Both the position numbers and the translations under genes were made by a program. From an uncultured archaeon (GTDB lineage Archaea; Asgardarchaeota; Lokiarchaeia; Sigyniarchaeales; SOKP01): a stretch of 27,257 bases of DNA. Under the pieces are notes generated by a model, which worked only from the letters and a program-made list of their open reading frames with translations, had not been told where the DNA came from and ran no database searches. The DNA is taken from positions 38,231 to 65,487 of the forward strand of contig CAZALK010000023.1 of the NCBI GenBank assembly GCA_964486045.1. Reading direction: 5' to 3'. Positions within the stretch are counted from its first letter, which is position 1; each line of letters opens with the position of its first letter. Positions 8,762-26,203 of this stretch are shown in pieces.

Positions 8762-8990
8762 GTTTAGTAGTCCAAAAAAAGTTATAATTTTTGACAACAA
8801 GTTAAGAGACATCAGAACGTGTTTATATTTTTTGATAAAAATTTATTAATTTCAAATTTATAATATTATTAAATTGTAATTTTGATAACTAAGTTAAGGT
8901 TCTTGAATTATTTATTTTGTGAAACAATATCAAATTAAAATATTTCATTTTACAAAATACTACTAGTAAAAAAAACAGAGGGGATAGAAA

Positions 8991-9821
8991 ATACAAGTAT
9001 TTCTTATAAATCCAGATGGAACAACCACCGAGGAAATAACAGATGGTTCGATTAAAAATATCTTAAAAACTGAGGAATGTTATGTCCTGGTTGCCGATGA
9101 TGTTAGAAAAGTTTATCTTTGGAAAGGTCTTAAGAGCAGTGTAAGGTCTAAATTCATTGGAGCGAAACGATCTCAAGAAATCCGCGGGCAAGTTGGAATG
9201 CATTATGGTGTCATCCCGCTTGATGAGAGTGAAGAAGATACTGAGTTTCTACAAATGATTGGTGGAAAAACAGAAGCAGGCATCGCAAAAGAAATAAAAA
9301 ATGAAGCGGTTACCTCACCGTCAGTGCATCCTCTGAGAGAAAAAAATGTGTTTGGTACGCCAAAACCTGCTGAAGGTATGAATATTGCAGGAAGTAAAAC
9401 TCGTGCTACAATAAATACTGGTCCTATGTATAGAGGAGAGAGTTCAATGCCATCTCTAATGCAGGAAGAAACTCATGTAGATTTTGAAGATATTATGAAA
9501 AAATTGGAACAAATTCAAATGCCTCCTGGGTTTGAAAGAGAGCTAATAATTATTGGAAATCACGCTTATTCGGTAGTTGAAAAAGTACAACAATTTCTAG
9601 GGAAGAAACAAGTCACTAAAGAGATCTCAAAGGTAGGTGATATTCCTGAAGGAATATTTTTTGCTGAAAGCTATGCACCTCGGATTCTTTCAGAAAACGG
9701 TAAAATTTTGGCAATCGAATTCCTTAAACGCACGGATGAATCAACCAAACCAGTAGAAGGTAGATCCAAGAGAGAGTTACTAAAAAATCAAATTAAACAA
9801 CAATTAGAAGGGAGTAGCTAA
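8991..9821 (+). CDS. Gelsolin-like domain protein with C-terminal Asgard-type extra domain (1DGelX-like); probable ATA start
   Basis: Frame is open from 8988, giving IQVFLINPDG...CYVLVADDVRKVYLWKGLKSSVRSKFIGAKRSQEIR...LDESEEDTEFLQMIG, which matches the gelsolin repeat pattern. The ORF track start at 9198 cuts this domain off. Confidence 0.8.
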   Translation: MQVFLINPDGTTTEEITDGSIKNILKTEECYVLVADDVRKVYLWKGLKSSVRSKFIGAKRSQEIRGQVGMHYGVIPLDESEEDTEFLQMIGGKTEAGIAKEIKNEAVTSPSVHPLREKNVFGTPKPAEGMNIAGSKTRATINTGPMYRGESSMPSLMQEETHVDFEDIMKKLEQIQMPPGFERELIIIGNHAYSVVEKVQQFLGKKQVTKEISKVGDIPEGIFFAESYAPRILSENGKILAIEFLKRTDESTKPVEGRSKRELLKNQIKQQLEGSS

Positions 9822-10021
9822 ATTCAATAAATTCTACATATTTTTCTCTTATTTTATTAATAAATAAAATCTAATTTCTGTAGTTTCAACAATATATCTC
9901 AGAAATTACCAATAAAATTATCATCAAAATTTTGAAAAAATCTTTAAGTTATTTCTAAATATAATTTTTTAAGTTTTGATTTTTTACTTATTATTAATTA
10001 AAAAAAAAATTTAAGAATATC

Positions 10022-10414
10022 ATGGCAGAATTAACCCCAGATGAAGCACAATCTCTTAGTAAATTTTTGGGCAGTATTACGGAGTATTCCGAGCTGGACG
10101 CGCTTGCTCTTATTACACGTGAGGGTTTACGCTTAGCTTTCAGTGCTGTACCGGGATACAATGTTGATCCTGACTTATTTTCTAGTTTAAGCGCGGTAGT
10201 TGTGCAATCCGGAAGTGATGCAATAAAAACACTCGGTTTTAAAAACATGCTGGAAATCATATTACGAGGTGACAATGCATTTATTATTCTTAGTGTAGCT
10301 GGACGATTCTTTTTAATGGGTGCTTCAAGAGAATCGGCAGAATTAGGAAAAGTCGTAAAGGTATTCAGATATTACAGTAATGAGATAAGTATGCGCTACC
10401 CGTTTGAAAAGTGA
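10022..10414 (+). CDS. Roadblock/LC7 (MglB/LAMTOR-like) domain protein
   Basis: 130 aa with ALALITREGLRLAFS, DLFSSLSAVV, EIILRGDNAFIIL and a terminal helix. Confidence 0.85.
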   Translation: MAELTPDEAQSLSKFLGSITEYSELDALALITREGLRLAFSAVPGYNVDPDLFSSLSAVVVQSGSDAIKTLGFKNMLEIILRGDNAFIILSVAGRFFLMGASRESAELGKVVKVFRYYSNEISMRYPFEK

Positions 10415-10646
10415 TATTGGCAGAGTACACCAAGTTTAAAGTTATTAACTTATCTAAGATTATTCAAAGATTTTATTTCTATGATTCTCTTATCAGCTTG
10501 ATATATGACAAAGCAAAGACAGAAGGATAAGTCTCTTTCTTAATATTAGGATAAGGAAGAAACATTGGGGGGGATTGTAAAGATATCATTCTCCGTTATT
10601 CTTCATTTATTCTATGCAAAGTACACTATTAAGTGAACTCATGAAT

Positions 10647-11024
10647 TCAAGGGTAAAATTTGCTATCTTTTGTATGCCTATAATATTCGCGATTTAACTC
10701 ATAGCAATCGACACAGAACCAGACTTTTGTTACGGGGTTGAATATCATATCTTGGTCGGATTTCTGACATACAGGACAAAGGCAAATTGACTTATCTAAA
10801 ATTTTATCTATTTCATACATTTTTCTAACAGGTCTTCGTGATACCCCTACGTTAGTCTCGTTATATTCTGCTGAATTGCCATTCTTATCCCACCATACAT
10901 TCTTTAATTCTTCTCTCAAACGAGATTTTTGATCTAGAGCAAATCTTATAAACACTAAGCGTAAATTATTCCTAAGCCTTCGCAATTGAGGATCTTTTAT
11001 TTTTATGGTTTTTTTGTGCTTCAC
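10647..11024 (-). CDS. Hypothetical protein with C-terminal zinc ribbon
   Basis: CPVC...WFCVDC; GTG start. Confidence 0.65.
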   Translation of the reverse strand: MKHKKTIKIKDPQLRRLRNNLRLVFIRFALDQKSRLREELKNVWWDKNGNSAEYNETNVGVSRRPVRKMYEIDKILDKSICLCPVCQKSDQDMIFNPVTKVWFCVDCYELNREYYRHTKDSKFYP

Positions 11025-11252
11025 AGTTATAATTTAGACTCTCAATAATCTTACTCTATGAACCTTGACTCTAAAGAGAAAATTGAATTTTAATAATTTA
11101 GTTAGAATAATATTTATGTAGTTAGTTATATCAAATCTAGAATAATATCTTATACTGATATTAGGTTATTATTAATAAGGAAGATAAATATTTGTTATTA
11201 GAAATTTTAATTTTGATCACTTGTAAGGCATTTATCAATTCAGAAAAAAAAA

Positions 11253-13532
11253 ATGAGTGAAATGACAGACCTTAAACTATTTGTTGATGCAAACAACGAA
11301 GTAGAAGATAAAGTACTAATTTGTCAATCAAATGCAGACAAATTAGGAGTCAAAAATGGAGATACAGTAGAAGTAATAAACGTTGACCACAATTTGAAAA
11401 AATTTGCTCAAGTGGAGATATCAAATACCATGTTAGATTTTGCTGGACAATTCGCAAAAAACATCCTTGATGACCTTCAATTTTCTGGGGTAGAATTAAC
11501 GATTCGGAAAGCCAGTGATGCTGCTACACTTACTCCAACAGTAAGGATCCCCAAAGTCCCCCCAGCACAAACAGCACCAGCACCGACAGAACATTCAAAC
11601 TTATCACCATTACCTACACCTCCTCCCGATGTACAACTATCTCAACCCGTCTCACCACCTTTTACTACTCCTGAACCAGTACCACAACCTCAACCCGTCT
11701 CACCACCTTTTACTACTCCTGAACCAGTGCCACAACCTCAACCCGCCTCATCACCAGTTACCACTCCTGAACCGGTACCACAACCTACACCACCACTACA
11801 ACCTACACCAACACTACAACCTACACCAACACCACAACCTACACCACCACCACCATCAGCGCCTTTAGCACAACCCTCTTTATCTCCTTTACCCTCACCA
11901 CCACCCCAACCTGCTCCAATAGATATTCCACCTTCTCCAGTAACACAAAATATATCTGAACCTTCAGCCCCAGAAGACCCATACCCAAACAAAATCGATG
12001 TTAATGTTCTACAGGGTCAAAAACGTGGAATAATCCTTAAACCTGTTTTAGATAATAATATTGAGGGTGGAAGAGTGCAGATCAGTGAAGGTGTTCTTCA
12101 ACAACTAGGTCTTGGACAGGGTATGCTACTAGGGTGGGAAGATCCATTAACAAGAGCAATGGGTTCAGCGCGAATTGATGCAACAAACATTATTCCGAAT
12201 GAAATAAAGATGAGTTTTGATACTTATGAGGACACAAATATTAAAGCAGAACAAATAGTTGTATACTCAACAGAACCACCTATTGAAAAAGCTTCTGAAA
12301 TGATGTTAGAAGTTGAGTCCCAACCCAATTTAATGGGATATGCTTTAGTTAGCCCACGAACTCAACATTCTCTTTCAATTAAAACGGAAGATATTCTTGC
12401 TTTTGAAGATGAGCTGACTGGGGCTGTGGGTGCAGCAAAAGTAGAGATTATGGAAGATTCATCTGATAATGTAATAATTATTGATAGTGAAGTTTTAGAA
12501 GCCTCTGGCATAGGTAGTTTTGAAGTAAAAGTCTCCAAAAACCAGAGGTCAATTATTCCCTTACAGAGTATTACACTTGGGATATCACCGATATCTGGGG
12601 AAAATATGTGGGAGATTATAAGTACTGCTAGAGAGAATGTTGACTCATTAAAAGGGTGGATTTCAAATTATGTCATTTTTAAGGGCATAAAACTAAGATG
12701 GAATGCTGTAAATATCGCCTGTTCAATTCTTGATACTGTACCCGACTTGGTTGGGGATATTTTTGCGAAAGTTACCGAAAATACAACACTTTCTTTAAGT
12801 CCGATGGGTTTAATTCCCTTTAATGCAATCTTAGTAATTGATATAAGCAGAAGCATGATGGCTCGGGATGTACTAGTCACTAACATCGCCCCCGCAATAG
12901 AAGGAATTAAAGCCGCAATGGAATCAAGGGAAATTCAGGAATTTTTAAAACACTTCAAAGATGGGGTTAACATACCACGTAGGATATCTGCAGCTTTTGC
13001 CGCAGTCTTATTTTTGAGTGAAAAAGTTGGTAGGGGATTCGGAGAAAAAGTCTCCATAATTCGCTTCGCGGATGAGGCGCAGGTACTCCCCTTTGGTAAT
13101 TCATATTATATGGATTCTGCAAGTGGTAAGAAGGGAATTCTTGAGGAGGCCGCCCGTATGATTGTAGATCGTGTAGGAAATAGTTATGGTCAAGCTACTC
13201 AATTAGGTGCTGCCATGCGATCAGCACATCAAGTATTAGATAACTTTCAAAATATGAATCCAGACCAGCCAACGATGATTATACTACTAACAGATGGTTT
13301 AGGGACAGATGGTGACGCTTTCATCAATGAGATTAAGAAATTTTCAGAAAATCCCAATGTTGTAATTTACATAGTTGGATTAGGTAACCCCGATGATGAG
13401 TTAATGACTCGCGCTGCTGCTCTGTGTGGAGGAGAATACTTTAAACCAGAGGATGCTGGAGAGCTTTTAATCTGGTACTCAAAACGAGCACGGGATCTCA
13501 CAGTAAAACTAAAAGCTCACAAAGTCGAATAA
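11253..13532 (+). CDS. Multidomain protein: Cdc48-N-like double-psi barrel repeats, Pro-rich linker and C-terminal vWA domain
   Basis: Three related segments (ADKLGVKNGDTVEV, LQQLGLGQGMLLGWEDPLT, QHSLSIKTEDILAFEDELT). MIDAS motif DISRS, then ATQLG, LLTDG, IYIVGLG and LCGGEYF. Confidence 0.85.
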   Translation: MSEMTDLKLFVDANNEVEDKVLICQSNADKLGVKNGDTVEVINVDHNLKKFAQVEISNTMLDFAGQFAKNILDDLQFSGVELTIRKASDAATLTPTVRIPKVPPAQTAPAPTEHSNLSPLPTPPPDVQLSQPVSPPFTTPEPVPQPQPVSPPFTTPEPVPQPQPASSPVTTPEPVPQPTPPLQPTPTLQPTPTPQPTPPPPSAPLAQPSLSPLPSPPPQPAPIDIPPSPVTQNISEPSAPEDPYPNKIDVNVLQGQKRGIILKPVLDNNIEGGRVQISEGVLQQLGLGQGMLLGWEDPLTRAMGSARIDATNIIPNEIKMSFDTYEDTNIKAEQIVVYSTEPPIEKASEMMLEVESQPNLMGYALVSPRTQHSLSIKTEDILAFEDELTGAVGAAKVEIMEDSSDNVIIIDSEVLEASGIGSFEVKVSKNQRSIIPLQSITLGISPISGENMWEIISTARENVDSLKGWISNYVIFKGIKLRWNAVNIACSILDTVPDLVGDIFAKVTENTTLSLSPMGLIPFNAILVIDISRSMMARDVLVTNIAPAIEGIKAAMESREIQEFLKHFKDGVNIPRRISAAFAAVLFLSEKVGRGFGEKVSIIRFADEAQVLPFGNSYYMDSASGKKGILEEAARMIVDRVGNSYGQATQLGAAMRSAHQVLDNFQNMNPDQPTMIILLTDGLGTDGDAFINEIKKFSENPNVVIYIVGLGNPDDELMTRAAALCGGEYFKPEDAGELLIWYSKRARDLTVKLKAHKVE
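11641..11855 (+). repeat. Coding tandem repeats: 3 x 48 bp (QPVSPPFTTPEPVPQP) then ~4 x 18 bp (PTPPLQ-like)
   Basis: 48-bp units start at 11641, 11689 and 11737; 18-bp units start at 11785, 11803, 11821 and 11839. Confidence 0.92.
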
Positions 13533-13703
13533 AAATCTTTTTGTACTTCTCTCTTTTTCACTTCTTATGATTGCAAAAAAGAATTAAAGAAAATTATATA
13601 ACTCTATTAGTTCATATACTAAACAAGTTATCTATTATATATATTAAGACTTCTTTACAGAAATTTAATTGCATTTTGTAAGAAATGAAGTACATGAATA
13701 ATA

Positions 13704-14558
13704 ATGAAAAAATTTAAAGTTAACACCTATCTAATGTTAAAACTGGAAAATCGAGAAACTAACATCTATATCAATGAAAAGATGTTTATGCAGTGCAAAT
13801 ACTTACTATTAGACATTCCAATACAAAAAATTAGCACATTTGATGAGATTGAGTCTATTGATGAAGCTGCTGAAAGACTAGATACATCTATGGAAGAGGG
13901 GAACGAGATTAAGTCAGAAATCTCTCCAGAAACAGAATTTTGGGGTCATTGCTCTAATTTGCAAGTGTGGTATGAACATGGCTATAATACCAATCTTTTA
14001 CATAGTAATTTGGCTTTCCCTTTACTTAAAAAGCTCGTAGATGCAGGAGATTCGTTGGCTGAAACGGTATTCAAGGAGGAGATTGTTAAAAGGATGAAAA
14101 TGGGATATGGAGCTACTTTTCTTTACCTCTTTGACGAGAAATACCATCACTATCTCAAAAGAGTGGAATTTATTGAAAACATTCTAAATCCCCATGATGT
14201 TGGAATATTAAAGGAGATTGAAAATTTATTAAATGTGGAATACGGATTAATAGATTCTCTTGAGTCTTTAAAATATGGGCTTCCAGATAAATATGTAGAA
14301 CATTTTGCAATTAAAGAAGGATTTATCACAGAATTGGAATTAGTGTTTAGAAAACCTTATCAGTTCCCTAAAAATATAAAAAACCTTTCTCGACTTAGAA
14401 CACTTTACGTCCATATTAGTGATATGGTTCTTATTAGGGAATTCAAACAATTATTAAAATCGATACCAATCGATAAGTTACATTCACTTGAATTATTAGA
14501 AGTTAATGGGGGCAAAATAGAAGACCTTACTAAATTTATAGAAAGTCTAATCGAATAA
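13704..14558 (+). CDS. Lokiarchaeal expanded-family protein (often LRR-associated) with one degenerate LRR-like stretch
   Basis: FKVNTYLMLKLE..TNIYIN..CKYLLL..SIDEAAE..EFWGHCSNLQVW..LLHSNLAFPLLKKL signature; FPKNIKNLSRLRTLYV near the C-terminus. Confidence 0.75.
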   Translation: MKKFKVNTYLMLKLENRETNIYINEKMFMQCKYLLLDIPIQKISTFDEIESIDEAAERLDTSMEEGNEIKSEISPETEFWGHCSNLQVWYEHGYNTNLLHSNLAFPLLKKLVDAGDSLAETVFKEEIVKRMKMGYGATFLYLFDEKYHHYLKRVEFIENILNPHDVGILKEIENLLNVEYGLIDSLESLKYGLPDKYVEHFAIKEGFITELELVFRKPYQFPKNIKNLSRLRTLYVHISDMVLIREFKQLLKSIPIDKLHSLELLEVNGGKIEDLTKFIESLIE

Positions 14559-14580
14559 ATTTTAAAAAAAGGAAAAAAAA

Positions 14581-15765
14581 TTATCTTAGCCTAAGCAATC
14601 TTCCTATATACACTACCATTGGATCCATACTTGTCCTTAAATAGTTCATATAAATGGTGCCAAATTGTGAACGCCCTCCAGAGGTCATAGATATCTTAAA
14701 CTTAAAGGCATCATTCCAATCCTGATTATGTTCATCGATATTACTATAAAATGTGATCTGATTTCCAGGATTATCTGGATCAGAGAATTTTTCGTAATAT
14801 TTCAAAACATATTGTCGACCTGTACCGGATGCAGTGTAAATTTGTGAACTTTTCAGATACCCTTGATAAGTTACAAAAAAATAGGCTCGATGCTGGTCAA
14901 ACGTGCTCCCTACAGGCTCAACAGAAAACCCAATTGGAATACCATGTAGTAAGAATGCGATATGTTCTAAAACATACATTGAATTTTCATAAACGGGAGT
15001 TCCTGGATTTCTTAGGTCTATTATAAAAGCATTAGGTTCTTGTGTAGGATCACTAACAGCTGGAAGAAGATATTCTCTTTTGATGTTGGCTTTAAAACCC
15101 TCCTTGGCACCTAAAGGAACTGCGAGTATTTTAGCGTATCCACCCACCAATTGAATTTCTTTTGCTAAATTGTTGGTAACACTTTTAACGTTTATATCTT
15201 TTATTGTATTGAACTTTTGTTGTTGAATCATTGCTTTTATTGTCTTTCCAACAGCTCCCCAAATGGTTATATCCTGCCCTATAAAATCTTCGTAATAAAT
15301 AGGTATTTTATAATTGACTCTTGTATTCGCAGGATTTGAGTATGGAAGTTCCAACATAGTAGTTGCTGCTTTAGAACCTATAAAACGCTCGAAGATTCCT
15401 CTTAATTGACTTTCAGCCTTTTCACTTGAAAGACTTGACCGAATATAAACTATAGATTGAGTAAGGAGCATTTGTTTTTGAGCTGAAGTGAGAGAATTAT
15501 CACTTAAGATATGATCGGTTACTATCTTTTCAAACTTCGTTATCAGATTACTCTGTTTCTTCATAAAAATTCCAGCAACATCAGCCTGAACCCTTGTGTC
15601 TTGAACAGTTGATAGTGGGGTTGTGCGGAATCTTTTTCCATGAATATCTGCAAATGAACTTGCTAACCCATAGGCAATTTCCCATGAAAGAGTTCGAGAG
15701 TCTCCCGCTGTTATTGGGGCAGTTAAAAGATTGGGAAATAAATGAGGAAATAATGGGTGAGATAT
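14581..15765 (-). CDS. Hypothetical protein (394 aa from a probable ATA start; 327 aa from ATG 15564)
   Basis: Frame stays open upstream of ATG 15564 until TGA at 15787-15789. AAGGAG at 15778-15783 precedes ATA at 15765. Confidence 0.7.
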   Translation of the reverse strand: MSHPLFPHLFPNLLTAPITAGDSRTLSWEIAYGLASSFADIHGKRFRTTPLSTVQDTRVQADVAGIFMKKQSNLITKFEKIVTDHILSDNSLTSAQKQMLLTQSIVYIRSSLSSEKAESQLRGIFERFIGSKAATTMLELPYSNPANTRVNYKIPIYYEDFIGQDITIWGAVGKTIKAMIQQQKFNTIKDINVKSVTNNLAKEIQLVGGYAKILAVPLGAKEGFKANIKREYLLPAVSDPTQEPNAFIIDLRNPGTPVYENSMYVLEHIAFLLHGIPIGFSVEPVGSTFDQHRAYFFVTYQGYLKSSQIYTASGTGRQYVLKYYEKFSDPDNPGNQITFYSNIDEHNQDWNDAFKFKISMTSGGRSQFGTIYMNYLRTSMDPMVVYIGRLLRLR

Positions 15766-15824
15766 AACGAAACTTTTCTCCTTTTTTCATTTTTTCTTTA
15801 TATTTATTCGATTTAGCTTGATGT

Positions 15825-16574
15825 ATGGCTGGAGATTTATTTATTACCTCATTGGTGATCTTTCTTTTTGTTCTAGTGATAGGATATGTAGTACAGACAA
15901 TTCTTGAGGGAAGTGATAGGGGTCCATTTACCACAATAATAAATATTCTAGCATTTATTGGCGTATATATACATGAAATTTCTCATGCGGTGTTAGCTAT
16001 TTTCTCTGGAGCTCCCGTAAAAAGTATTAAGGTTAGGTTAAGGGATGAAGACACGGGAAGAATCGCCCCTCATGGGGAAATAAACACCAGAAGACCCTAC
16101 CAAATGACCTTCCTTCAATCACTTTTAACCAGCTTTGGTCCGGTAATACTCGGTACATGGATATTTTATTTTGCGATGCAATTTGCGTTCGATTTGTTAG
16201 TTGATCCCCTTTTTCGTATAATATCGGGATTAATAGCACTTTCAGTCCTTATCGCCTCGACACCCTCTCCCCAAGATCTCAGGTTAATAATCGTTTATTT
16301 TAGTTTCGATCCTCGGCATTCATGTTACCAAATTATAGTGTTAACAGCCTCTATTTTACTCTCATGGACAATCGTGGTAGCATTTCACATTGTTTTTCCC
16401 ATTGAATTTTTTTATTACGGTCTCATTATCTTTTGGTATTTCACTCTCAAATACTCATTACTCCTGATTAAATGGGGTTTTAACAAGATTCGTACTCGGT
16501 TCGGGAAAGAAACAAATAGATCACGGTTTAGACGATCTTCCAGGAGAAAATATACATCTTCACAATTTAAATAA
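15825..16574 (+). CDS. M50-like intramembrane zinc metallopeptidase
   Basis: HEISH (HExxH) in hydrophobic context, FGP motif, PSPQD third-ligand motif, several TM segments. Confidence 0.8.
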   Translation: MAGDLFITSLVIFLFVLVIGYVVQTILEGSDRGPFTTIINILAFIGVYIHEISHAVLAIFSGAPVKSIKVRLRDEDTGRIAPHGEINTRRPYQMTFLQSLLTSFGPVILGTWIFYFAMQFAFDLLVDPLFRIISGLIALSVLIASTPSPQDLRLIIVYFSFDPRHSCYQIIVLTASILLSWTIVVAFHIVFPIEFFYYGLIIFWYFTLKYSLLLIKWGFNKIRTRFGKETNRSRFRRSSRRKYTSSQFK

Positions 16575-16594
16575 TAAAAAGTAGGTGAACGAAA

Positions 16595-16927
16595 ATAAAA
16601 GGATTAATTTTGGTAGTACTAGCTATTGGGTTTTTCATGTTTTATCAGCAGAGTCCGGTGTATGCGATAATAATAATTGGAATCTTTATCGCAGGGTATA
16701 TTTTTGTTAAATCACGAAAATCTGGTTCAGGTATTGGTGGGTTTTTAAAAGGGAAGTCGGCTCAACCGAATAATCATATGGATGATCTTATAACTTTGAT
16801 AATGCTCCAGCAATTGACTAACAATACAAACTCCCGTCTGGATAGCATTGAGGAACGCGATAATAATGATCATGAAAAGCATATTGAAAAAATAAAGCAA
16901 GAAACTCTCGCCCTTTTAGATGAGTAA
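16595..16927 (+). CDS. Small two-TM membrane protein; probable ATA start
   Basis: AGGTGA at 16583-16588, then in-frame ATA AAA GGA TTA ATT TTG. Its stop overlaps the next ATG. Confidence 0.7.
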   Translation: MKGLILVVLAIGFFMFYQQSPVYAIIIIGIFIAGYIFVKSRKSGSGIGGFLKGKSAQPNNHMDDLITLIMLQQLTNNTNSRLDSIEERDNNDHEKHIEKIKQETLALLDE

Positions 16928-17195
16928 AACAATGGATACAATGTTGCTTCAAGAATCGATTATAACAAGTATTCACGAATTGTTTCAAAAAAATACTTTA
17001 ATCTCTATATCAGGAAAAGCTGGAACAGGCAAAACATCTCTCTCGTTATATTTAATAGGGAATTTTCTTACATCTACCCAACCTTATGAGAGTTTATATT
17101 ACTCTTGTAGAAGAATTAATTTACGCCAAATTTTATCGAAAAAGAGATCCACTAAAAGTGTAAAATATTATCAAGCAATAGGGATAGTAAAGTAG
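16920..17195 (+). pseudogene. Truncated RecA/RadB/KaiC-like P-loop ATPase (N-terminal fragment)
   Basis: LISISGKAGTGKTSLSL Walker A motif. No Walker B; after about 17095 the frame runs into unrelated sequence and overlaps the kinase 3' end. Confidence 0.7.
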
Positions 17196-19237
17196 AATGT
17201 GCTTCCTTTGTTAGAACCATCTGATTCTAACCAGATTTTACCACCATAAGACTCTACAATTTTTTTTGAAATATACAGACCAAGACCAGTCCCATCAATC
17301 CCTAAATCAATCCCTTGACCATAACGCTCGATTTTTCCAAAACGGACAAAAACCCTCTCTTTCTGATCCTCCGTAAACCCAATCCCATCATCGGTCACAG
17401 AAATCAACACAAAATCATCTTTTATGTCTGTTTTTACTACAATTTTTCCATTTGGGGGGGTATACTTAATTGCATTAGATAGTAAATTGGAAAGAACGTC
17501 GTGAATTTCTTCTTTTTCAATATTTGCGTACAATTGGTCATGTATATTTAACTTAATAGATTGTTTCCTTTTTTTTGCCATAGATTCCATTTCGTTCACA
17601 CAATATTTGATAAGAAATGGTAAATCCTCTTTTTGTAAATTTGATTTTAATTCAATCGACTCTAATCGAGAGGATTTCAACAAATCATTAATGATATATT
17701 GAAGTCGTTCGCAACCATGACTTATCTCATTTAAGTGTGAAATAATTTCTGGATCCAGTTGATCAGTATATAATCTTAAAATGAGGTCAGAGAAACCTTT
17801 AATTGAAATGAGGGGTGTTTTTAATTCATGAGAAGCTCTTCTTAAAAATTCGGATTTCAATTGATTTAATTTTTGTAATTCAATTTCTGCCATTCTTTCT
17901 TTAGTAATATCTACGATTGTAGCAAAAATTGTAGGTTTCTCCTGAAACTGAAACATCTTAGAATAAACTTCTATCCATTTGATTTCTCCTGAGCTAGTAA
18001 TTATTCTAAGAGGATCACTAGTTCTATCTCCAAATACTCCTTCCTCCCTTTTATTAAATCGTTTTACCGCAATATCTCGATCTTCTGGGTGAATAAGTTT
18101 AAAAATATCAGTAACATTAATGACTTTTAGTTCTTCAGACGTATATCCGAATACTCTGTATATGGCATTGTTTAAATAGATAATGCGGCTACCTTGAATT
18201 ATTACAAAACCAGCAGAGGATTGTTCGGCAATTGTTCTAAATTTCTCTTCGGATTCTTTCAATTCTTGTGCCATTTGTTTGCGGTTAGTAATATCTATTA
18301 ATGAAATTAAATCGGCATTTCTCCCTTCATATATGAAAGATTTTGAAAAAATTTCAAGCCAAATGATATCTCCTCTCTTTTTTACGCCACGAAATTCGTA
18401 TCGATTTATAACATCTTCAATTCCTTTCTGTTTCTTTTCAGCTTGATTCTTTACGAATTCTAAATCTTCAGGGTGTACCATCTTCAAATAACCTCCCAAT
18501 TCCCAATTCAAAATTTCTTCTACGGAATAACCAAAAATTTTGCCAAATTGCTGATTCACGTATTTATAATGATCATCTTGTAAAATCCCTATCCCCGTTA
18601 GCGATTGTTCCGCGAGTACTTTAAATTGTTTGTTAGATTCTGCTAATCTTTGCATAGCTACTTTTATTTCGAAAAATTTTTTTAATCGCTTTCCTAAATC
18701 GTCTAGTAAACTTTCTTCCTCTTTAAGAAAGGGTTTATCTTCAAGGTAATAAACTTCAATCATCATCACTTTTTCATTTACAATAACATTAGTTGACAAT
18801 TTCCATTCAGTTTCTTTGAAATTACTTGTTTTGAATTCTTTATTATCAAAATATATTCTCGCACATGTTATTTCTGGAAATTGCAATGCAGGGAGGATCA
18901 AATCTAAGGTCCCTTGTAATATTGCTTCTTGTGATATTTCTGGATTCTCAACAAGCTTAGACAACCCATATAAACAAGTAAGTTCCTTAACACGTTCTCC
19001 TAAATTATGTTCAGATTCTATTAATTTTTGTACTGATTTTATTTGTTGTTTACTGTAATACTGAAGAACCACGCTTAAAGTGAAGATAATGCCAAATACA
19101 ACAAATCGAATCAAAAATTCATGAAACTCATTTGAAAATCTATGGAGATTAAAGAATATTAATTCAAATATGATACCCAGCGTCACAATTATCAGACCCG
19201 CCATTATTATCTTATATTTGGCAAGAAAGCTTTTCAT
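17171..19237 (-). CDS. Membrane-anchored PAS-PAS sensor histidine kinase
   Basis: Two TMs, ERVKELTCLY segment, two PAS domains (VHPED/IHPED, DIT), ASHELKTPL H-box, NLLSNAIKYT, DDGIG, GTGLGL. True start is probably ATG 19237 (MKSFLAK); the track start 19267 lies inside the inserted element. Confidence 0.93.
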   Translation of the reverse strand: MKSFLAKYKIIMAGLIIVTLGIIFELIFFNLHRFSNEFHEFLIRFVVFGIIFTLSVVLQYYSKQQIKSVQKLIESEHNLGERVKELTCLYGLSKLVENPEISQEAILQGTLDLILPALQFPEITCARIYFDNKEFKTSNFKETEWKLSTNVIVNEKVMMIEVYYLEDKPFLKEEESLLDDLGKRLKKFFEIKVAMQRLAESNKQFKVLAEQSLTGIGILQDDHYKYVNQQFGKIFGYSVEEILNWELGGYLKMVHPEDLEFVKNQAEKKQKGIEDVINRYEFRGVKKRGDIIWLEIFSKSFIYEGRNADLISLIDITNRKQMAQELKESEEKFRTIAEQSSAGFVIIQGSRIIYLNNAIYRVFGYTSEELKVINVTDIFKLIHPEDRDIAVKRFNKREEGVFGDRTSDPLRIITSSGEIKWIEVYSKMFQFQEKPTIFATIVDITKERMAEIELQKLNQLKSEFLRRASHELKTPLISIKGFSDLILRLYTDQLDPEIISHLNEISHGCERLQYIINDLLKSSRLESIELKSNLQKEDLPFLIKYCVNEMESMAKKRKQSIKLNIHDQLYANIEKEEIHDVLSNLLSNAIKYTPPNGKIVVKTDIKDDFVLISVTDDGIGFTEDQKERVFVRFGKIERYGQGIDLGIDGTGLGLYISKKIVESYGGKIWLESDGSNKGSTFYFTIPIA

Positions 19238-19250
19238 ATTTTTATATAAA

Positions 19251-20750
19251 AAACTTTCTATATACAATAATTTATAGATTGATAGCTGAGTAAAAAATTT
19301 TTTCCCAGCTTTTAAAAATTAAATCTTAAAATTTAGGAAAGTATAAAAGATTTCAGTAAAACCGAGTCTTAAACAACTCATTTTAGCTATTAAAAATAAA
19401 AAGAGAATAAAAAAATTATAACTTTTTTAGGATTTTTTTCATTTGTTCTTCAAATTTATCAAGTCTTAAGCTTAAATTAGCATTTTCTTTTACGGCTATT
19501 TCATTTTGTTCTGTTAATTTTGCTATTTCAGTTTTTAATTTAATTATTACTTCATTTGTCTTATTTAAAATTATGCAATCAACACAGATTTCTTTTTCTA
19601 CTCTGAGCCATTTGGTATAATACCATTCAAAGTTTTTAAGACTTGTTATATAAGCAGAATCTCTATAATTCGGTTCTCTTCCTTCTAAGTGTTGATTAAA
19701 TCTGTCATCAGATTCTTCCATATTAGCAATTGTATTAGTAAAATACTTTCTAAATGCATGAGTTTTTAGATTTCCATTAAATCCAAGTTTTTTAGAAATA
19801 GCTTTAACTCTGGCTAAATAATCAATACCTCTAATTCTTTTATTCTTTCTACTTAAAAAAAGTTTAGTTAAATCTATTTCTTCCATTTTATCTTTTGGAT
19901 AAATAGATGCTAATAATTCAGATAATTCAGTTGTAAAAAATAGAAAGTTAATAATAACTTTTTCTTTATGAGAAATAAAGTCTCTAATGAAATAATGTTT
20001 TTTATATTGCTCAATTTTATACTTTCCATTTGTTAGTTCATCTAAAACATCACTTATCCTTAATCCTGTTTGAGTTTCAAATTTATTGATTAAGTTATAT
20101 TGTCGTGATTCTAATAAATTTTGAATTTGTTTAATCATATCTTTATCTAAGTATATTTCTTCTTTATTAGCACCACTTTTCCTTGCTTTCATTCCATAAC
20201 TAATATTAACTCCTCTATCACTGAAAAAACCTTTAATTCTGCTTTGAATCATATTTCTGATTGATACATCACTTGGTCTTTTTCTAAAACCTAATTTCTT
20301 GATTTCTTCTTCTTCAGCATTATATAAGAAAGTAAGATATTTCTTTAATCTTGCATTTCTTCCATCTATATCTTCAGTTAATAACTCACTTGGATTATCA
20401 GTTTTATTAAAATCACAGTATTGTTGTAAATAACCTATATAACTTGTAAAACTAAATTTAGCAGGGTCTTTTCCTTCTTCAGTGTATTGGTCAATCATAT
20501 TCCTAATCCAAGATTGAATATCCTTGTTATCATAGATTGAATATAATTCTTTCCATCCTTTAATGTGTTTACCTTTTGCATTAGTATAACCATTGATTTT
20601 ATTTGTTCCAAATATTTTTTCGAAGTTTATTTCTTGATCAGTTATAATTTCTAACATTTTTCTTGATCAACTCCTTTTTAATTTTAGTTTGATTCATTAA
20701 GAATAATGAAAAAATTTAGACTTATAAATTTATGTATATACACAAACTTT
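19251..20750 (-). mobile_element. Minimal tyrosine-recombinase-only integrative element (1493 bp core to core)
   Basis: 7-bp direct core AAACTTT at 19251-19257 and 20744-20750. Inner inverted arms at 19259-19276 and 20723-20740 match 16/18. The outer arms rejoin into a perfect palindrome. Confidence 0.7.
19416..20657 (-). CDS. Tyrosine recombinase/integrase with C-terminal coiled coil
   Basis: TGLRISD (R), HAFRK (HxxR), QHLEGR, DSAY (catalytic Y). SD AAGGAG upstream. Confidence 0.9.
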   Translation of the reverse strand: MLEIITDQEINFEKIFGTNKINGYTNAKGKHIKGWKELYSIYDNKDIQSWIRNMIDQYTEEGKDPAKFSFTSYIGYLQQYCDFNKTDNPSELLTEDIDGRNARLKKYLTFLYNAEEEEIKKLGFRKRPSDVSIRNMIQSRIKGFFSDRGVNISYGMKARKSGANKEEIYLDKDMIKQIQNLLESRQYNLINKFETQTGLRISDVLDELTNGKYKIEQYKKHYFIRDFISHKEKVIINFLFFTTELSELLASIYPKDKMEEIDLTKLFLSRKNKRIRGIDYLARVKAISKKLGFNGNLKTHAFRKYFTNTIANMEESDDRFNQHLEGREPNYRDSAYITSLKNFEWYYTKWLRVEKEICVDCIILNKTNEVIIKLKTEIAKLTEQNEIAVKENANLSLRLDKFEEQMKKILKKL

Positions 20751-20784
20751 TATATAAAAATTTATATTTAACTTTTTACTAATA

Positions 20785-21027
20785 GGAAATGTCTATCTAT
20801 TCATGATTGGTGTATCACGAGAATTTCAAGGAAAAGGTTTTGGGGGAAAATTATTAAGAGCAGTTATAGAAAAAGCTGATACAGAAAGAAAACCTATGTA
20901 TTTGGGGACTCAAAATGAAAAGAATGTTTCCCTCTATGAAAAGTATGGATTTTATGTTTATAAAAAAATAAATCTTCCAGAACCATTGAATTTACCAATG
21001 TGGTTAATAGTTCGAGATGATCGATAA
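20785..21027 (+). pseudogene. C-terminal remnant of a GNAT acetyltransferase
   Basis: YLFMIGVSREFQGKGFGGKLL (motif A) and NVSLYEKYGF. The N-terminal half is absent. Confidence 0.75.
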
Positions 21028-21135
21028 ATTTGAGTGCTTCGTCTCCATATTCTAAATTTGAAATAAGTGTGAATTACAACTATTAAAAGTTTATTATGTA
21101 TTGAATTTAATATAGGTTAAAGTGGAGGAAGAGGG

Positions 21136-21651
21136 GTGCGAAATTCATATAAAAATTTATTAATTATTTATCTCCCTACTTCAAAACTCCTAGCAACCAA
21201 TTTGAAGTGTTCTTTTACAAATTTTGTAATCTCAAAAAACCTTTCTTGGAATTTACTTAGTTATATAAAAGCCAAAACAACCTTTTTTGAAACATATTCA
21301 AGGGAAGATTTTTCATTTTCTAGGTATAAACATAGACGTTTAACAGTGCGAATTCTGTTATTATTTTGGTTTTTATTATTAGGTACGCTACTTTTTTTAC
21401 CTTCATTGGTCAAGGGAAATTTTATATTTTATTTGGGACTGGGAGGATGGTTAATTGTCGGTTTGATATCTCTTATATTTTACATAAGGTTCAAGAAATT
21501 AAAAAAGAGAATCGTAAAAAACATAAACTTTCCGTATTATAGAAGAGCGATAAACTTTGAAAAATTAAAGCATTTTTTTAAAATAGCAGGAGCCACAGTC
21601 TGGTTTCAAGGTCAATTTATGTTTGAACATAAACCACTGGATGAGATGTAG
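21136..21651 (+). CDS. Hypothetical two-TM membrane protein, possibly decayed
   Basis: GGAGG before a GTG start; two hydrophobic segments; ends just before the duplicated vWA tail. Confidence 0.45.
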   Translation: MRNSYKNLLIIYLPTSKLLATNLKCSFTNFVISKNLSWNLLSYIKAKTTFFETYSREDFSFSRYKHRRLTVRILLLFWFLLLGTLLFLPSLVKGNFIFYLGLGGWLIVGLISLIFYIRFKKLKKRIVKNINFPYYRRAINFEKLKHFFKIAGATVWFQGQFMFEHKPLDEM

Positions 21652-21700
21652 ATTCAGAGGTATTGTTAATGTTCTGGAAGGAACAAAATTACGATTTCAG

Positions 21701-21889
21701 TTTTCGGAAAATCCAAATGTAGTTATCTACATAGTTGGATTAGGAAATCCTGATGATGAATTAATGACACGTGCTGCTACTTTATGCGGTGGGGAGTATT
21801 TTAAGCCAGAAGATGCAGGAGAACTTTTAATTTGGTATTCAAAACGAGCTAGAGATCTCACAGTAAAATTGAAGGCTCATAAAGAATAA
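21701..21889 (+). pseudogene. Orphan 3' fragment of the vWA gene (right island boundary)
   Basis: FSENPNVVIYIVGLGNPDD...KLKAHKE; 32 differences over 183 nt versus 13341-13523 by manual count, nearly all synonymous. Confidence 0.92.
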
Positions 21890-21989
21890 AAAACGAGTTT
21901 CATTTTTTCTCTTTATAATAAATTTCTTGTTAATCATTCTTTCTAATTCAAGATCTATCTCCATCCTTCAATTGCATGCTTGCTAAACT

Positions 21990-22877
21990 CTAGATCCATT
22001 TTCTGATGCTTTTCTGAATTTTAAGCTCCCCAAGGTTTTTGAATATCTCACCCTCGTGAAGCTTCTCGTACTGAGGGAACCGTCCACATAAGGGGCTGTC
22101 CCTGAAACTTTTCCAAACAGGTGAGATACCAAAAGATCCATTCTGACGAATCCAAGCAACCTTATCTAAATCTATGACTTCTGTCATTACTTCCTCATGA
22201 GTACCCACTGCTTGGAGCATTCTTCCTTCCGGATCAGTAAAAAGAGACCTACCTCCTCCTGTCTTGCTGATAATATTGGTGTTCAATACATAACACTGAT
22301 GCATAATAGCTTGGGCCTGAGTCAATATTATTTCTGCATCACGATCTGGGGTATTGGTTGCTGATAGTTGTAGAATTACTTCTGCTCCCATCCAGGTAAG
22401 TGTACGGAAAAGTTCTGGGAACCATAGGTCATAACATATTACGAGCCCCACCTTGGTAATTCCGGGAATCTCAAAAGTTACAAAATCAGTACCATAAGCA
22501 GTGTCTTCGAATGGCATCCAGGGGTATATTTTCCTGTACTTTGCTATAATTTTTCCTTTCGGATTGAAAACGATGGCAGTATTGTAGATGTCGGATCCAT
22601 CAATTTCAAGGAAGGAACCTGGTACTAGCCAACAACCAACTTCCTTAGCAATATCAGAAAGGCTCTCTGTTAATTCACAGGGAATATTGATTGCTAAATC
22701 TTTCCAGTCTCCCTTACCAAAAGGCTGAAGTAACAACTCTCCCGTGAACATTAGATCAACCCAAGGGAACTGCGCCTTCGTGATCCTAACGGTTTTTTCA
22801 AAGTTCTCAAAAGTGACCGAAGGATTTTCTTGGTCTTTCTTTAGTTGTAGACCTGCAACTCCAAGTTTTCGCGACAT
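21990..22877 (-). CDS. Carbon-nitrogen hydrolase (nitrilase superfamily)
   Basis: E-K-C triad: MFTGEL, KYRKIYPW, ICYDLWFPE. Confidence 0.92.
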   Translation of the reverse strand: MSRKLGVAGLQLKKDQENPSVTFENFEKTVRITKAQFPWVDLMFTGELLLQPFGKGDWKDLAINIPCELTESLSDIAKEVGCWLVPGSFLEIDGSDIYNTAIVFNPKGKIIAKYRKIYPWMPFEDTAYGTDFVTFEIPGITKVGLVICYDLWFPELFRTLTWMGAEVILQLSATNTPDRDAEIILTQAQAIMHQCYVLNTNIISKTGGGRSLFTDPEGRMLQAVGTHEEVMTEVIDLDKVAWIRQNGSFGISPVWKSFRDSPLCGRFPQYEKLHEGEIFKNLGELKIQKSIRKWI

Positions 22878-23109
22878 CTGTTCAACTCTAAACCTTTTTT
22901 ATGATAAATGTTTTCGAATTATTATTTATTATATTAGGTTGATTTGTTATATATATAAAAATATTGAATTTCTTGAGTGATGAGATTTCATTAATATTAT
23001 TAATAATAATTTTTTTAATATTTATAAGAAAATCACACTCATGAAATAATTCTTGATATTACTTCATAAGATAGTGAACTAAGGAATCACATAATTCATT
23101 TTTGTTGAT

Positions 23110-23307
23110 TTGCTATATAAAAAAACTAGTTCATATAGTTATGAACAATACCAATCCGCAATCAAAAAGTTAAAAACATTTATTCTTAAGTACACAGGCA
23201 ACGTTTACACCCCACTAATTAAAAAGTATAGATCTCTAAAAGACGATGTTAATTCACCGTTAGAGCAGTTTTGTTTTACCGTCGTGGATGCAATCAATAC
23301 CAGTTAG
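23110..23307 (+). pseudogene. 5' half of a ~126-aa hypothetical gene split by the 2.16 kb insert
   Basis: Ends ...SPLEQFCFTVVDAINT and stops just after repeat copy 1; joins in frame with 25457-25646. Confidence 0.75.
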
Positions 23308-23415
23308 AGTTCTTGAAGAAGAAAGTAAATAAATCTTAAATTCTTTTTTTTTACTTTTTTTACCTTTATTCTATAAATATAAAATAACCTAATTTATCAG
23401 ATATGTATAGTAAAG

Positions 23416-23691
23416 ATGATTACCAAGAAAATGAAAGAATTAGAAGATTTAACTGAAACAGAAAAAGCTGTTTTTTTGGCTTGTTGTGATGCAAATAATT
23501 TTAGTTTAAGATCTCATGTTCCAATTGAAGCAATTGCAAAAAGAATACAAGATTATGTTTCAGGGAGATATTTCAATAAAGCTATAAGGGTATTACTTTC
23601 TAATGGTTTTATTAGAAAACATCCGACTAAAGGCAAAACAACTTACGAATTAACGCGAAATGGATGGAAAGAAGGATTTAAATTAAAATAA
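23416..23691 (+). CDS. Small winged-helix DNA-binding protein
   Basis: LTETEKAVFLA...IEAIAKRI...AIRVLLSNGFIRKH..TYELTRNG pattern. Confidence 0.7.
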   Translation: MITKKMKELEDLTETEKAVFLACCDANNFSLRSHVPIEAIAKRIQDYVSGRYFNKAIRVLLSNGFIRKHPTKGKTTYELTRNGWKEGFKLK

Positions 23692-23744
23692 TATTTTTTA
23701 ATAAATCATTTTAAATATCTTTTTTGACCATACAAAATATTTTG

Positions 23745-23774
23745 CTTCGCGAAGTTTCGCGAAACATTTATATA
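23745..23774 (+). promoter_or_regulatory. Twin palindromic operator (CTTCGCGAAG / GTTTCGCGAAAC) next to a TATA-like TTTATATA
   Basis: Two perfect GC-rich palindromes sharing base 23754 in very AT-rich intergenic DNA, upstream of a wHTH gene. Confidence 0.55.
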
Positions 23775-23821
23775 TTTTCTTAATTATATTAATATTGAGA
23801 AAAATCAAAAAGTGACTAAAA

Positions 23822-24106
23822 ATGTTAGAAAAAGCAAATAAAATCAGATTACTTAATTCTATGAAAAATAGGTATTTTTTGTATGAAATTATTAATAAGA
23901 AACCAGGATTAACGATTTATGACTTAACGAAAGAAGTAAATTGGACTTCTGGGAAAGTTAATCATTACATTCAGAAATTGATTAAAGATAGAGTAATCAA
24001 AAACTCTACTGAAATTGAAAATGGACGGGTTAAGAAACGATATTCTCCTGTGAGTTATAAAGAGTTCATTAATTGGGATGAAATGAACATAAGACCTGAA
24101 AAATAA
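23822..24106 (+). CDS. ArsR/MarR-like winged-helix transcription regulator
   Basis: LYEIINKKPGLTIYDLTKEVNWTSGKVNHYIQKLIKDRVI. Confidence 0.82.
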   Translation: MLEKANKIRLLNSMKNRYFLYEIINKKPGLTIYDLTKEVNWTSGKVNHYIQKLIKDRVIKNSTEIENGRVKKRYSPVSYKEFINWDEMNIRPEK

Positions 24107-24147
24107 TTCTTTTTATCTTTTTTTATTTTTGTAGAAAGCCTCGATTT

Positions 24148-24375
24148 ATAAGACGTTATATCTTAATAATTCTTGACACGATAAAAATTGAAGAAATTCT
24201 TGAGGGATTCTCTATTGAAGATGATGGTGTGCCCGATGAGAATGTTGTCTTTATTAGTGAAGAGGATGAGAGAATATTATACAACCAGCTCGAACATCTC
24301 TATAGTGAACTTATCATGATTCATAGACTTAAATTAAGTAAAATGCATTGCGAAAGTGGAAAATGCCATTATTAA
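24148..24375 (+). pseudogene. Acidic ORF remnant absent from the ORF track
   Basis: Open frame ...LDTIKIEEILEGFSIEDDGVPDENVVFISEEDERILYNQLEHLYSELIMIHRLKLSKMHCESGKCHY* with no canonical start at its 5' end. Confidence 0.45.
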
Positions 24376-24468
24376 TGAGATTTTTCTTATCTTAGCAATT
24401 ATTTTTTAGTATAAATTTAAATATAGACATTTTTATCAAATTCCTATTACGACAAAGAAATGATTTGA

Positions 24469-24996
24469 ATGAAAAATAAAAAAAATCTATTATATTTTGC
24501 TCTCTCCACTATTATTATCTTGAGTTTCTATAATTTCAGAGCATTGGCATTACCAAATCCAGATTATACTATTCAAATAGATGCTGGAAATTATTGGGTT
24601 CTATATAGTGATTTATCAAATGGTGATACTTGGAGTATTGAATTTGAAGTAACGGCAGGCGGGAATAAAGATATAACTGTATATGTTTTAGATGAAGAAA
24701 ATTATAATAATTTTGTAGCATTATTATCTTTTAGTTATTATAAGTATTATGAAAAATATCAGTCGGGCTCATTCGGTTTTACAGCTCCATCTTTTGATAC
24801 ATACTATATAGTATTTGATAATTCTTTCTCTATTATAACCGCAAAAACAGTTGAAATTAATTCTCAAATTAGTTATTATACTAGTGGTGGTGGTGGTGGT
24901 GGTGGTGGTAATATTCCAGGATATAATTTTATAATTATAATCGGCATTACAATTGGAATCAGCTTAATTTTAACCAAAAAGATAAAATACAAATAA
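24469..24996 (+). CDS. Exported surface protein: signal peptide, beta-sandwich (GOLD/emp24-like) domain, Gly8 linker, Loki-CTERM-like anchor
   Basis: N-terminal signal; SIEFEVTAGGNKDITVYVLD..YYIVFDNSFSIITAKTV; IPGYN followed by a TM and a basic tail. Confidence 0.8.
   Translation: MKNKKNLLYFALSTIIILSFYNFRALALPNPDYTIQIDAGNYWVLYSDLSNGDTWSIEFEVTAGGNKDITVYVLDEENYNNFVALLSFSYYKYYEKYQSGSFGFTAPSFDTYYIVFDNSFSIITAKTVEINSQISYYTSGGGGGGGGNIPGYNFIIIIGITIGISLILTKKIKYK
24886..24909 (+). repeat. (GGT)8 microsatellite encoding a poly-Gly linker
   Basis: Eight perfect units. Confidence 0.95.
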
Positions 24997-25125
24997 TTAT
25001 TTTTTACTTATTTTTTAGTTTTTGTTTTTTGTCGGTAATCCTTAAATCTTTTCTTATCTTTATTTTAATTATTATTCCACAGCTTTAGAATGAACAAATT
25101 AGAGAGATTTTTAGATGATTAGTAT

Positions 25126-25338
25126 ATGGAAGTAATAGAAACAATTTATCGGGGCTATGCTGATGATATTGAGGCGCATGTTTTTGAATGTGTCCATGAG
25201 AATCTAATAATTTGTTTTGAATATACTCCAAAATTTCTTGGCGAGATAGATACAACTCATTGGCTTTGGAAACTCAACGATACATATTTGGTTATAGATA
25301 ATATTGGCGAGTTTAATATTTGGATGGGGGGACGATGA
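25126..25338 (+). CDS. Small hypothetical protein
   Basis: 70-aa ATG ORF with plausible composition inside the insert. Confidence 0.5.
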   Translation: MEVIETIYRGYADDIEAHVFECVHENLIICFEYTPKFLGEIDTTHWLWKLNDTYLVIDNIGEFNIWMGGR

Positions 25339-25407
25339 GTGAATACTGAATTAAAAATAATGAAAGTCATAATCTTTTTCGAGCCTATTTTGATTTTGTC
25401 AATAGCT

Positions 25408-25646
25408 ATTCACCGTTAGAGCAGTTTTGTTTTATCGTTGTGGATGCAATCAATACAAAACTTGAAAAGGTTACAAAGAAGTTTGCTATGGATATTAACG
25501 AATTATATTTTGATGATGGTTTAGAACTTAGCATAACGGTTAAGAACAGTCTATTGAGTAAATTCCCAATTAGACACCTATATTTTGACGATTTGGACAC
25601 CAAGAACAAGAAAGTGATAATTCAGATCCTCAAAACCGAGTTCTGA
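25408..25646 (+). pseudogene. 3' half of the split hypothetical gene
   Basis: Starts in repeat copy 2 (SPLEQFCFIVVDAINTKLEK...). Confidence 0.75.
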
Positions 25647-25792
25647 TGATAAGTTCACTATCTAATGCACTTAATAGTTGTTAAAGGAAGTTAGACTTAA
25701 ATTCTTCTTTGATTTACAATTTTTCAAAAAAGCCTAATTTTATTATTTAGGAATTAGTTAATATTTATAGGATAAATTTAAGGTGTCAAAAA

Positions 25793-26203
25793 ATCACGAA
25801 AGATGTAAAAATCATTACTATTGACAATCGGGGAAGGATTGTCTTACCATTGGTGACACGAAAAAGCCTCGGGATAACTACAGATTCACAGTTAATGCTC
25901 GTTAGTGATTCGGAAGCAAAAGAAATACGGATAACACCAGTTGGAATCACAAAAGAAGAAAAACCTATCAAGTTTAAGATAACTATGAGTGATGAACCTG
26001 GTTCATTAGCCAAGATTGCTACAATTTTTGGAGATAATGGTATTTCTTTAATGTATGGGGAAAGTGTCATTATCGAAAAATCTAAAACTGCTATCTGGAC
26101 CGTAATTAGTCCAACTCCAAAACATATATCACTTGAAGAATTAAAAGAAAGCTTGATGAAAAGTGATAAAGCAGTTAATGTTGAAATTATACCTATTGAT
26201 TGA
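25793..26203 (+). CDS. AbrB/SpoVT-ACT domain transcription regulator; probable ATC start
   Basis: KIITIDNRGRIVLPLVTRKSLGI (AbrB) lies mostly upstream of the track start 25850. ITMSDEPGSLAKIATIF is an ACT motif. AGGTG at 25781-25785. Confidence 0.85.
   Translation: MTKDVKIITIDNRGRIVLPLVTRKSLGITTDSQLMLVSDSEAKEIRITPVGITKEEKPIKFKITMSDEPGSLAKIATIFGDNGISLMYGESVIIEKSKTAIWTVISPTPKHISLEELKESLMKSDKAVNVEIIPID

Follow-up and report, generated by a model that had tools for sequence, protein, structure and literature searches.

Near-cognate translation start codons are already known from several systems. For instance, bacterial infC, which encodes the initiation factor IF3, carries a start codon of the AUU/AUA type, and four AUU/AUA sites with extended Shine-Dalgarno (SD) sequences have been reported in Staphylococcus aureus, of which the three tested give 10-30% of the AUG output (bioRxiv 10.1101/2025.06.19.660503). 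According to PMC4705826, AUU is disfavoured in vitro by the archaeal factor aIF1, and both IF3 and the eukaryotic eIF1 autoregulate through weak starts. Archaeal reviews, in the parts available, list AUG, GUG and UUG only as start codons; archaeal initiation appears there as restricted to these codons with aIF1 rejecting AUU, and strict AUG choice as a eukaryotic refinement. Here, we describe a window of 27,257 nucleotides (nt) from an uncultured Lokiarchaeia archaeon (assembly GCA_964486045.1, contig CAZALK010000023.1, positions 38,231 to 65,487 of the forward strand), for which a sequence-only reading had proposed that four genes start at ATA or ATC codons behind SD-like motifs. Extending the analysis to the host genome, we consider it highly likely that the Promethearchaeia (Lokiarchaeia) lineage routinely initiates translation at near-cognate codons via SD guidance, mostly at ATA, ATT and ATC (ATH in DNA, AUH in mRNA).

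The candidates described below resemble bacterial infC and infC, cvfC1, ccpN and citZ of S. aureus in having a strong SD before AUU or AUA and in being conserved between species (PMC4705826; bioRxiv 10.1101/2025.06.19.660503). Moreover, as in bacterial infC, the gene of a fidelity factor, here aIF1, is itself among them. They differ in number, since S. aureus has four such sites and the Lokiarchaeia genome about 100 predicted ones. In contrast to infC with its IF3, the Lokiarchaeia machinery is of the archaeal/eukaryotic type (aIF1, aIF1A, aIF2), and ATC and ACG starts are predicted as well. The literature searched, which leaves out most subscription journals, contained no report of AUH starts in Asgard archaea. 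Within that literature, the new aspects are the scale in an archaeon, the genes affected and the start of aIF1.

Near-cognate codons behind Shine-Dalgarno motifs across the genome

Homologues and related loci carry the labels Promethearchaeota/Promethearchaeia (Lokiarchaeia). The host genome (5.18 Mb, 31% guanine plus cytosine) is 99% complete and 7.8% contaminated; the small contigs C40 and C45, with 58-59% guanine plus cytosine, are probable contamination and were excluded from the statistics. The 3' end of the 16S rRNA is GGATCACCTCCT, which gives the SD consensus AGGAGGTGAT. The survey started from 4229 open reading frames (ORFs) of at least 100 codons, 763 of which have an SD match of at least 5 near the 5' end. 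The test set consisted of the 258 SD-led ORFs lacking a canonical codon at spacings 4-15, with spacing being counted from the last G of GGAGG (aligned spacing) and expected counts being taken from spacings 14-22. Among these 258 ORFs, 115 have ATA, ATT or ATC at spacing 8-10, with 29 expected (p=1.6e-41), and the candidates peak at the same spacing as ATG starts, the mode being 9 for both. The observed and expected counts are 50 and 6.7 for ATA, 44 and 19.7 for ATT, 21 and 2.7 for ATC, 8 and 1 for ACG, and 3 and 0.3 for CTG; AAG and AGG showed no excess at the modal spacing. The ATH excess of about 97 genes amounts to 16% of the SD-led starts and to at least 2.3% of the ORFs, and it is about 90 genes according to controls with internal SDs and shuffled sequences. 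ATA, ATT, ATC or ACG directly behind an SD is very probably the start of about a hundred genes, and about one in six SD-led starts of the host genome would be an AUH codon.

The candidate codons also behave like starts in other respects. Ser follows 16% of the ATH candidates, 17% of the canonical starts and 7% of the internal Ile codons (p=0.001), and the residue after a candidate therefore resembles a second residue. Furthermore, SD matches of at least 6 are commoner at ATH candidates (50% vs about 30%). An SD-independent check of 369 orthologue pairs revealed 18 genes without an available canonical start, and in 15 of these a near-cognate codon lies opposite the ATG of the partner, that is, in about 4% of the pairs. 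The same SD test gave 15% in two relatives of the genus, about 6% (7 candidates) in two closed genomes of a neighbouring family and 3% in a distant Asgard genome, all from small samples. As a control, phage K of Staphylococcus (30% guanine plus cytosine) showed no ATH excess (0 of 102 cases); a 50-kb region of E. coli contained 10 SD-led ORFs only, too few to inform. Together with the interchange of codons between orthologues, the survey supports the proposal that AUH initiation is frequent in this lineage.

Candidate starts in the window

The coordinates, SD motifs, stops and distances reported for the four cases in the window all match the sequence, and an Rfam search of the window gave no match. 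The relevant features are as follows:

8977..8986 (+): GAGG-g-GAT, SD of the gelsolin-like gene, agreeing with the anti-SD complement in 7 of 8 matches and sharing bases with the in-frame TAG at 8985
8991..9821 (+): gelsolin-domain protein of 276 residues, predicted start ATA, with one N-terminal gelsolin-like domain and a C-terminal part
14581..15786 (-): hypothetical ORF of 401 codons, first ATG at 15564
16583..16588 (+): SD AGGTGA of the membrane gene, containing an in-frame TGA
16595..16927 (+): small membrane protein of 110 residues, predicted start ATA
25781..25785 (+): SD AGGTG of the AbrB/MazE-ACT gene
25793..26203 (+): AbrB/MazE-like and ACT regulator, predicted non-canonical start ATC 25793 or ACG 25796

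The gelsolin-like, AbrB-ACT and membrane candidates are each located at aligned spacing 9, the mode of the genome, and the minus-strand candidate at 11. The first three probably have non-canonical starts as had been proposed, and the minus-strand ATA found no support.

In the gelsolin-like gene, AGAGGGG (8977-8983) lies 7 nt upstream of ATA 8991, the in-frame TAG 8985 is two codons upstream, and the first canonical codon is ATG 9198, 69 codons downstream. The public protein collection contains the product solely as 207 residues from ATG 9198. A second species (87% DNA identity) has kept the ATA with no canonical codon adjoining, and the closest database orthologue (88% identity) has its initial Met exactly opposite the Ile of ATA 8991 in a gapless alignment. 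Moreover, the segment upstream of ATG 9198 shows strong protein conservation. Among 28 orthologues from the genus, four have ATG at the codon of ATA 8991, 18 have one extra residue with ATA (14), ATT (2) or ATG (2) one codon further up, and six have TTG or GTG two or three codons up. In most of the 18, a TTG also abuts the SD; the gene callers choose this codon, to which about 70 of 120 database N-termini of the protein correspond. The TTG is probably not the true start because the same position is TAG in the window and TTA in the second species. ATA 8991 thus holds up as the predicted start.

The label 'gelsolin' is weakly supported for this protein. Residues 2-93 match the PDB entries of 2DGel (E=9e-9) and ProGel (E=1.5e-5), and a Pfam search gave no gelsolin match. 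The AlphaFold models were unusable, with pLDDT values of 46 for the sequence alone and 41 with 23 sequences. Among the Asgard gelsolins ProGel, 1DGelX and 2DGel (PMC7444086; PDB 7c2f, 7whg), residues 2-93 align with the ProGel domain, and the layout, with one gelsolin domain and a further region behind it, resembles that of 1DGelX. The protein differs from the Asgard gelsolins by its weak similarity, the missing Pfam match and an unassigned C-terminal part, and actin binding is putative.

The membrane gene has AGGTGA (16583-16588) 6 nt upstream of ATA 16595, which directly follows the in-frame TGA; as this TGA sits inside the SD, the frame cannot extend upstream. The codon at this position is canonical in 29 of 29 orthologues (ATG 23, GTG 4, TTG 2), and a paralogue on contig C1 has ATA too. 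Callers use TTG 16610, only five codons downstream, at a cost of five residues. ATA 16595 also holds up as the likely start. The expected interchange of ATG and ATA at one and the same codon is indeed seen in the gelsolin-like and membrane genes.

In the AbrB-ACT gene, AGGTG (25781-25785) is followed after 7 nt by ATC 25793 and then by ACG 25796; the upstream stop is TAG 25748, and the first canonical codon, TTG 25850, already lies within a weak MazE/AbrB match. Opposite ACG 25796, the 29 orthologues have ATG (21), TTG (3), ATC (2), ATT (1), ACG (1) and a Gly codon preceded by ATG (1). The closest relative has two stops immediately before ATA-ACG, and the ACG is retained while 24 of 44 fourfold sites differ, ACG being 9% of the Thr codons. 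The original reading was right that no usable canonical start exists. However, because spacing favours ATC and the orthologous ATG favours ACG, the two codons are about equally probable starts.

For the minus-strand ORF, the motif AAGGAG had been placed 12 nt upstream of ATA 15765. The first ATG is 74 codons into the frame, and the alignment with a stand-alone homologue begins some 50 codons before it, so the called product of 327 residues is too short. The frame as a whole, with the codons upstream of ATA 15765 and the Lys-Glu codons making up the putative SD, aligns (28% identity) to the C-terminal part of a 913-residue protein in a different genome of the genus. Since the homology reads through this motif, ATA 15765 cannot count as a demonstrated start, and we regard it as a rather unlikely start site. 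A 5'-truncated relic or a frameshifted gene is at least as likely. On the minus strand, an ATG with six A directly behind it (15790-15782) is offset by one base from the frame of the ORF, and a frameshifted or slippage-dependent gene is possible.

The cases could also be explained by assembly errors or recent loss of starts, with the genes decaying or starting at the next canonical codon. The host genome is indeed metagenome-assembled and contaminated to 7.8%, the minus-strand gene looks like a relic, and the membrane gene has its TTG five codons downstream. However, when the 5' ends were compared with ENA and Logan assemblies, that of the gelsolin-like gene was identical in two assemblies of each kind, which derive from two samples and from strains differing in gene order, and that of AbrB-ACT was identical in a sister strain; those of the membrane and minus-strand genes were identical in ENA/Logan records that probably stem from the window's own sample. 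The 5' ends thus recur across several assemblies, the sister strain and the second species. Furthermore, single-copy essential genes are involved (aIF1 in 79 of 79 relatives, and L21e), upstream segments are under strong protein conservation, and errors would not cluster at SD spacing. We therefore judge this explanation very improbable.

The minus-strand ORF is located in a strain-specific island with an integrase. Positions 13535-21699, likely a mobile island, are missing in the sister strain (L207, L208) and contain the integrase (19416-20666), a PAS histidine kinase, an M50-like peptidase and the membrane gene. An ORF of 91 codons at 16920-17195 has weak nSTAND3/PhoH matches; it covers just the N-terminal P-loop portion of an NTPase and has a truncated look.

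Signature and core genes with predicted non-canonical starts

In the gelsolin-like, AbrB-ACT, actin paralogue, aIF1 and L21e genes, the stretch from the upstream stop to the conserved N-terminus lacks a canonical start. Among eukaryotic signature proteins, forced non-canonical starts are predicted in one of five actins, one of seven gelsolin-like proteins, two of 15 roadblocks and neither of two Snf7 proteins; further forced cases are L21e, a TFIIS-type Zn-ribbon protein, CdhC, ETF-alpha and MvhD (CTG). The actin case is the following:

C24:48523-49668 (L215:1024-2169): actin paralogue, predicted ATT start behind GAGGTG, Pfam Actin E=1e-126

The main actin has its ATG at the position of this ATT, and four orthologues of the paralogue have ATT, TTG, TTG and ATG there. 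The first ATG lies past the phosphate-1 loop, which canonical-only calling would drop.

NCBI translation table 11 formally allows ATT, ATC, ATA and CTG as alternative initiators, which are treated as rare exceptions. The gene calls for the gelsolin-like and membrane genes make no use of them. As about a hundred genes very probably start at non-canonical codons behind an SD, gene finders would truncate host proteins: with canonical codons only, the median loss is 15 codons, and at least 30 codons are lost in 34 of the 115 candidates. The systematic truncation that had been predicted, eukaryotic signature proteins included, is real, but it concerns a minority of about 2-4% of the genes, and the membrane protein loses five residues only. 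Database proteins are truncated or wrongly extended, the gelsolin-like protein being short by 69 residues, most of its gelsolin-like domain. Such miscalls bear on how many eukaryotic signature proteins are counted, on structure models and on constructs designed from annotated sequences.

Of four Ras-family genes without a canonical start, three were set aside: two without an SD look like frame breaks, and a third has a GTG three codons into the domain. The GTPase domains at C1:29567 (+) and C17:96893 (-) open directly after an in-frame stop with no SD and may reflect frameshifts or hidden introns. The Pfam profilin profile gave no match in the genome, nor in the controls, and leaves profilin unassessed.

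aIF1 and the initiation machinery

The gene of the fidelity factor aIF1 is itself a candidate:

C1:612448-612768 (L218:952-1269, -): aIF1/SUI1, predicted ATT start

The ATT immediately follows a stop, and the first canonical codon is 56 codons in. In the relatives, the predicted start codon is ATT in 76 of 79 and ATC in three, it is preceded by the conserved motif GGTTGTGA in all 79, and none has a canonical start ahead of the Zn knuckle. Canonical-only calling would drop the Zn knuckle and loop 1. In other Asgard families, aIF1 starts with ATA or CTG in five of 26 parsed genomes (three families; L260, L263, L264, L273, L275). The genes of aIF1A, aIF2-beta and aIF2-gamma have ATG starts.

The machinery itself appears normal. 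The factor aIF1 looks normal: it aligns fully with aIF1 structures of the M. jannaschii/Pyrococcus type and keeps the Zn knuckle and the RRKWGR loop. The 790 loop, G1338/A1339, C1400 and the h44 motifs of the 16S rRNA are all present, and the initiator tRNA (Met-tRNAi) is ordinary, with a CAU anticodon, A1:U72, three G-C pairs and one intron. Since the initiator tRNA, the anti-SD and aIF1 all appear ordinary, the likely mechanism is a relaxed initiation guided by the SD. The 16S anti-SD would pair with a GGTGA- or GAGG-type motif and bring the codon at aligned spacing 8-10 into the P site, where under low stringency the ordinary Met-tRNAi (CAU) would be accepted on AUA, AUU and AUC with a third-position mismatch and more rarely on ACG and CUG. 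Acceptance would be frequent enough for essential genes such as those of L21e and aIF1, the weaker codon would be offset by a stronger SD, and near-cognate starts would swap with ATG, TTG or GTG at the same codon between species. We infer that ATH codons are used in vivo and give Met-initiated proteins at lower output.

Several points weigh against routine near-cognate initiation. One of the four window cases fails (ATA 15765), and many gelsolin orthologues have the in-frame TTG that abuts the SD three codons upstream, so that a near-cognate start is not forced in them. Moreover, the related genomes are non-independent samples, and no lesion that would explain the relaxation was found in loop 1 of aIF1, Met-tRNAi or the P-site motifs of the 16S rRNA.

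More speculatively, the conserved AUU start would hold aIF1, and hence stringency, low through feedback. We tentatively propose that stringency may act as a global control in Lokiarchaeia, with the AUU-started aIF1 limiting itself and jointly tuning about 100 genes with near-cognate starts, including those of the actin paralogue, the gelsolin-like protein, roadblocks and ribosomal proteins. This would be a prokaryotic forerunner of, or parallel to, the autoregulation of eIF1 via an AUG in poor context, which PMC4705826 describes: the factors are homologous (aIF1/SUI1), and each has a weak start able to sense stringency. However, eIF1 relies on a weak Kozak context and scanning, whereas the weakness in aIF1 is the SD-positioned codon itself, and the feedback is putative. 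In the neighbouring family, aIF1 starts at TTG or ATG, and some ATH excess exists there despite the canonical start. A close prokaryotic relative of the eukaryotes with AUH starts, aIF1 included, would offer a natural setting for testing the evolution of start fidelity and of its feedback.

The concentration of the excess on the three Ile codons would fit a recoded initiation code, in which a dedicated initiator tRNA with an anticodon of the Ile type reads AUH as start. However, the tRNA-Ile(GAT) that was found looks like an elongator, with G1:C72 and an anticodon stem lacking three G-C pairs, the search for initiator-type tRNAs returned the one described above with CAU, A1:U72 and three G-C pairs, and ACG and CTG are enriched as well. 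The tRNA set is incomplete owing to introns, with 12 tRNAs found without intron handling and mostly noise from ARAGORN with relaxed intron settings; even so, we give little credence to a recoded initiator. The initiator tRNA-Met gene (C1 near 583602-583726, L394), with its intron at the canonical 37/38 site, is missed by the ARAGORN defaults.

An AUG could also be created in the transcript, either through A-to-I editing of AUA or through removal of a small bulge-helix-bulge intron, whereby an upstream AUG would be joined to the gene. Among the codons, ATA is the most enriched, and relatives carry a 29-nt insert in aIF2-gamma that resembles such an intron. However, editing of AUA leaves ATT, ATC, ACG and CTG unexplained, and splicing predicts neither the modal SD spacing nor the exact register with orthologous ATG codons. 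Compared with relaxed SD-guided initiation, a post-transcriptional origin of AUG is thus a most improbable explanation.

The aIF2-gamma gene (C1:76553-78154; L395:1486-3087, -) encodes a protein extended at its N-terminus by about 115 residues, which comprise a helix-hairpin-helix domain (PF14520) and a Lys/Pro-rich linker. This extension is common to many family members. In about 11 relatives, the host genome not among them, aIF2-gamma is interrupted at the P-loop. The three examined (L397:1448-1520, L399:1460-1532, L400) have the 29-nt insert between a Gly and a Lys codon, and two of the three inserts fold like a bulge-helix-bulge intron. Because of this insert, mRNA splicing is probably present in the family.

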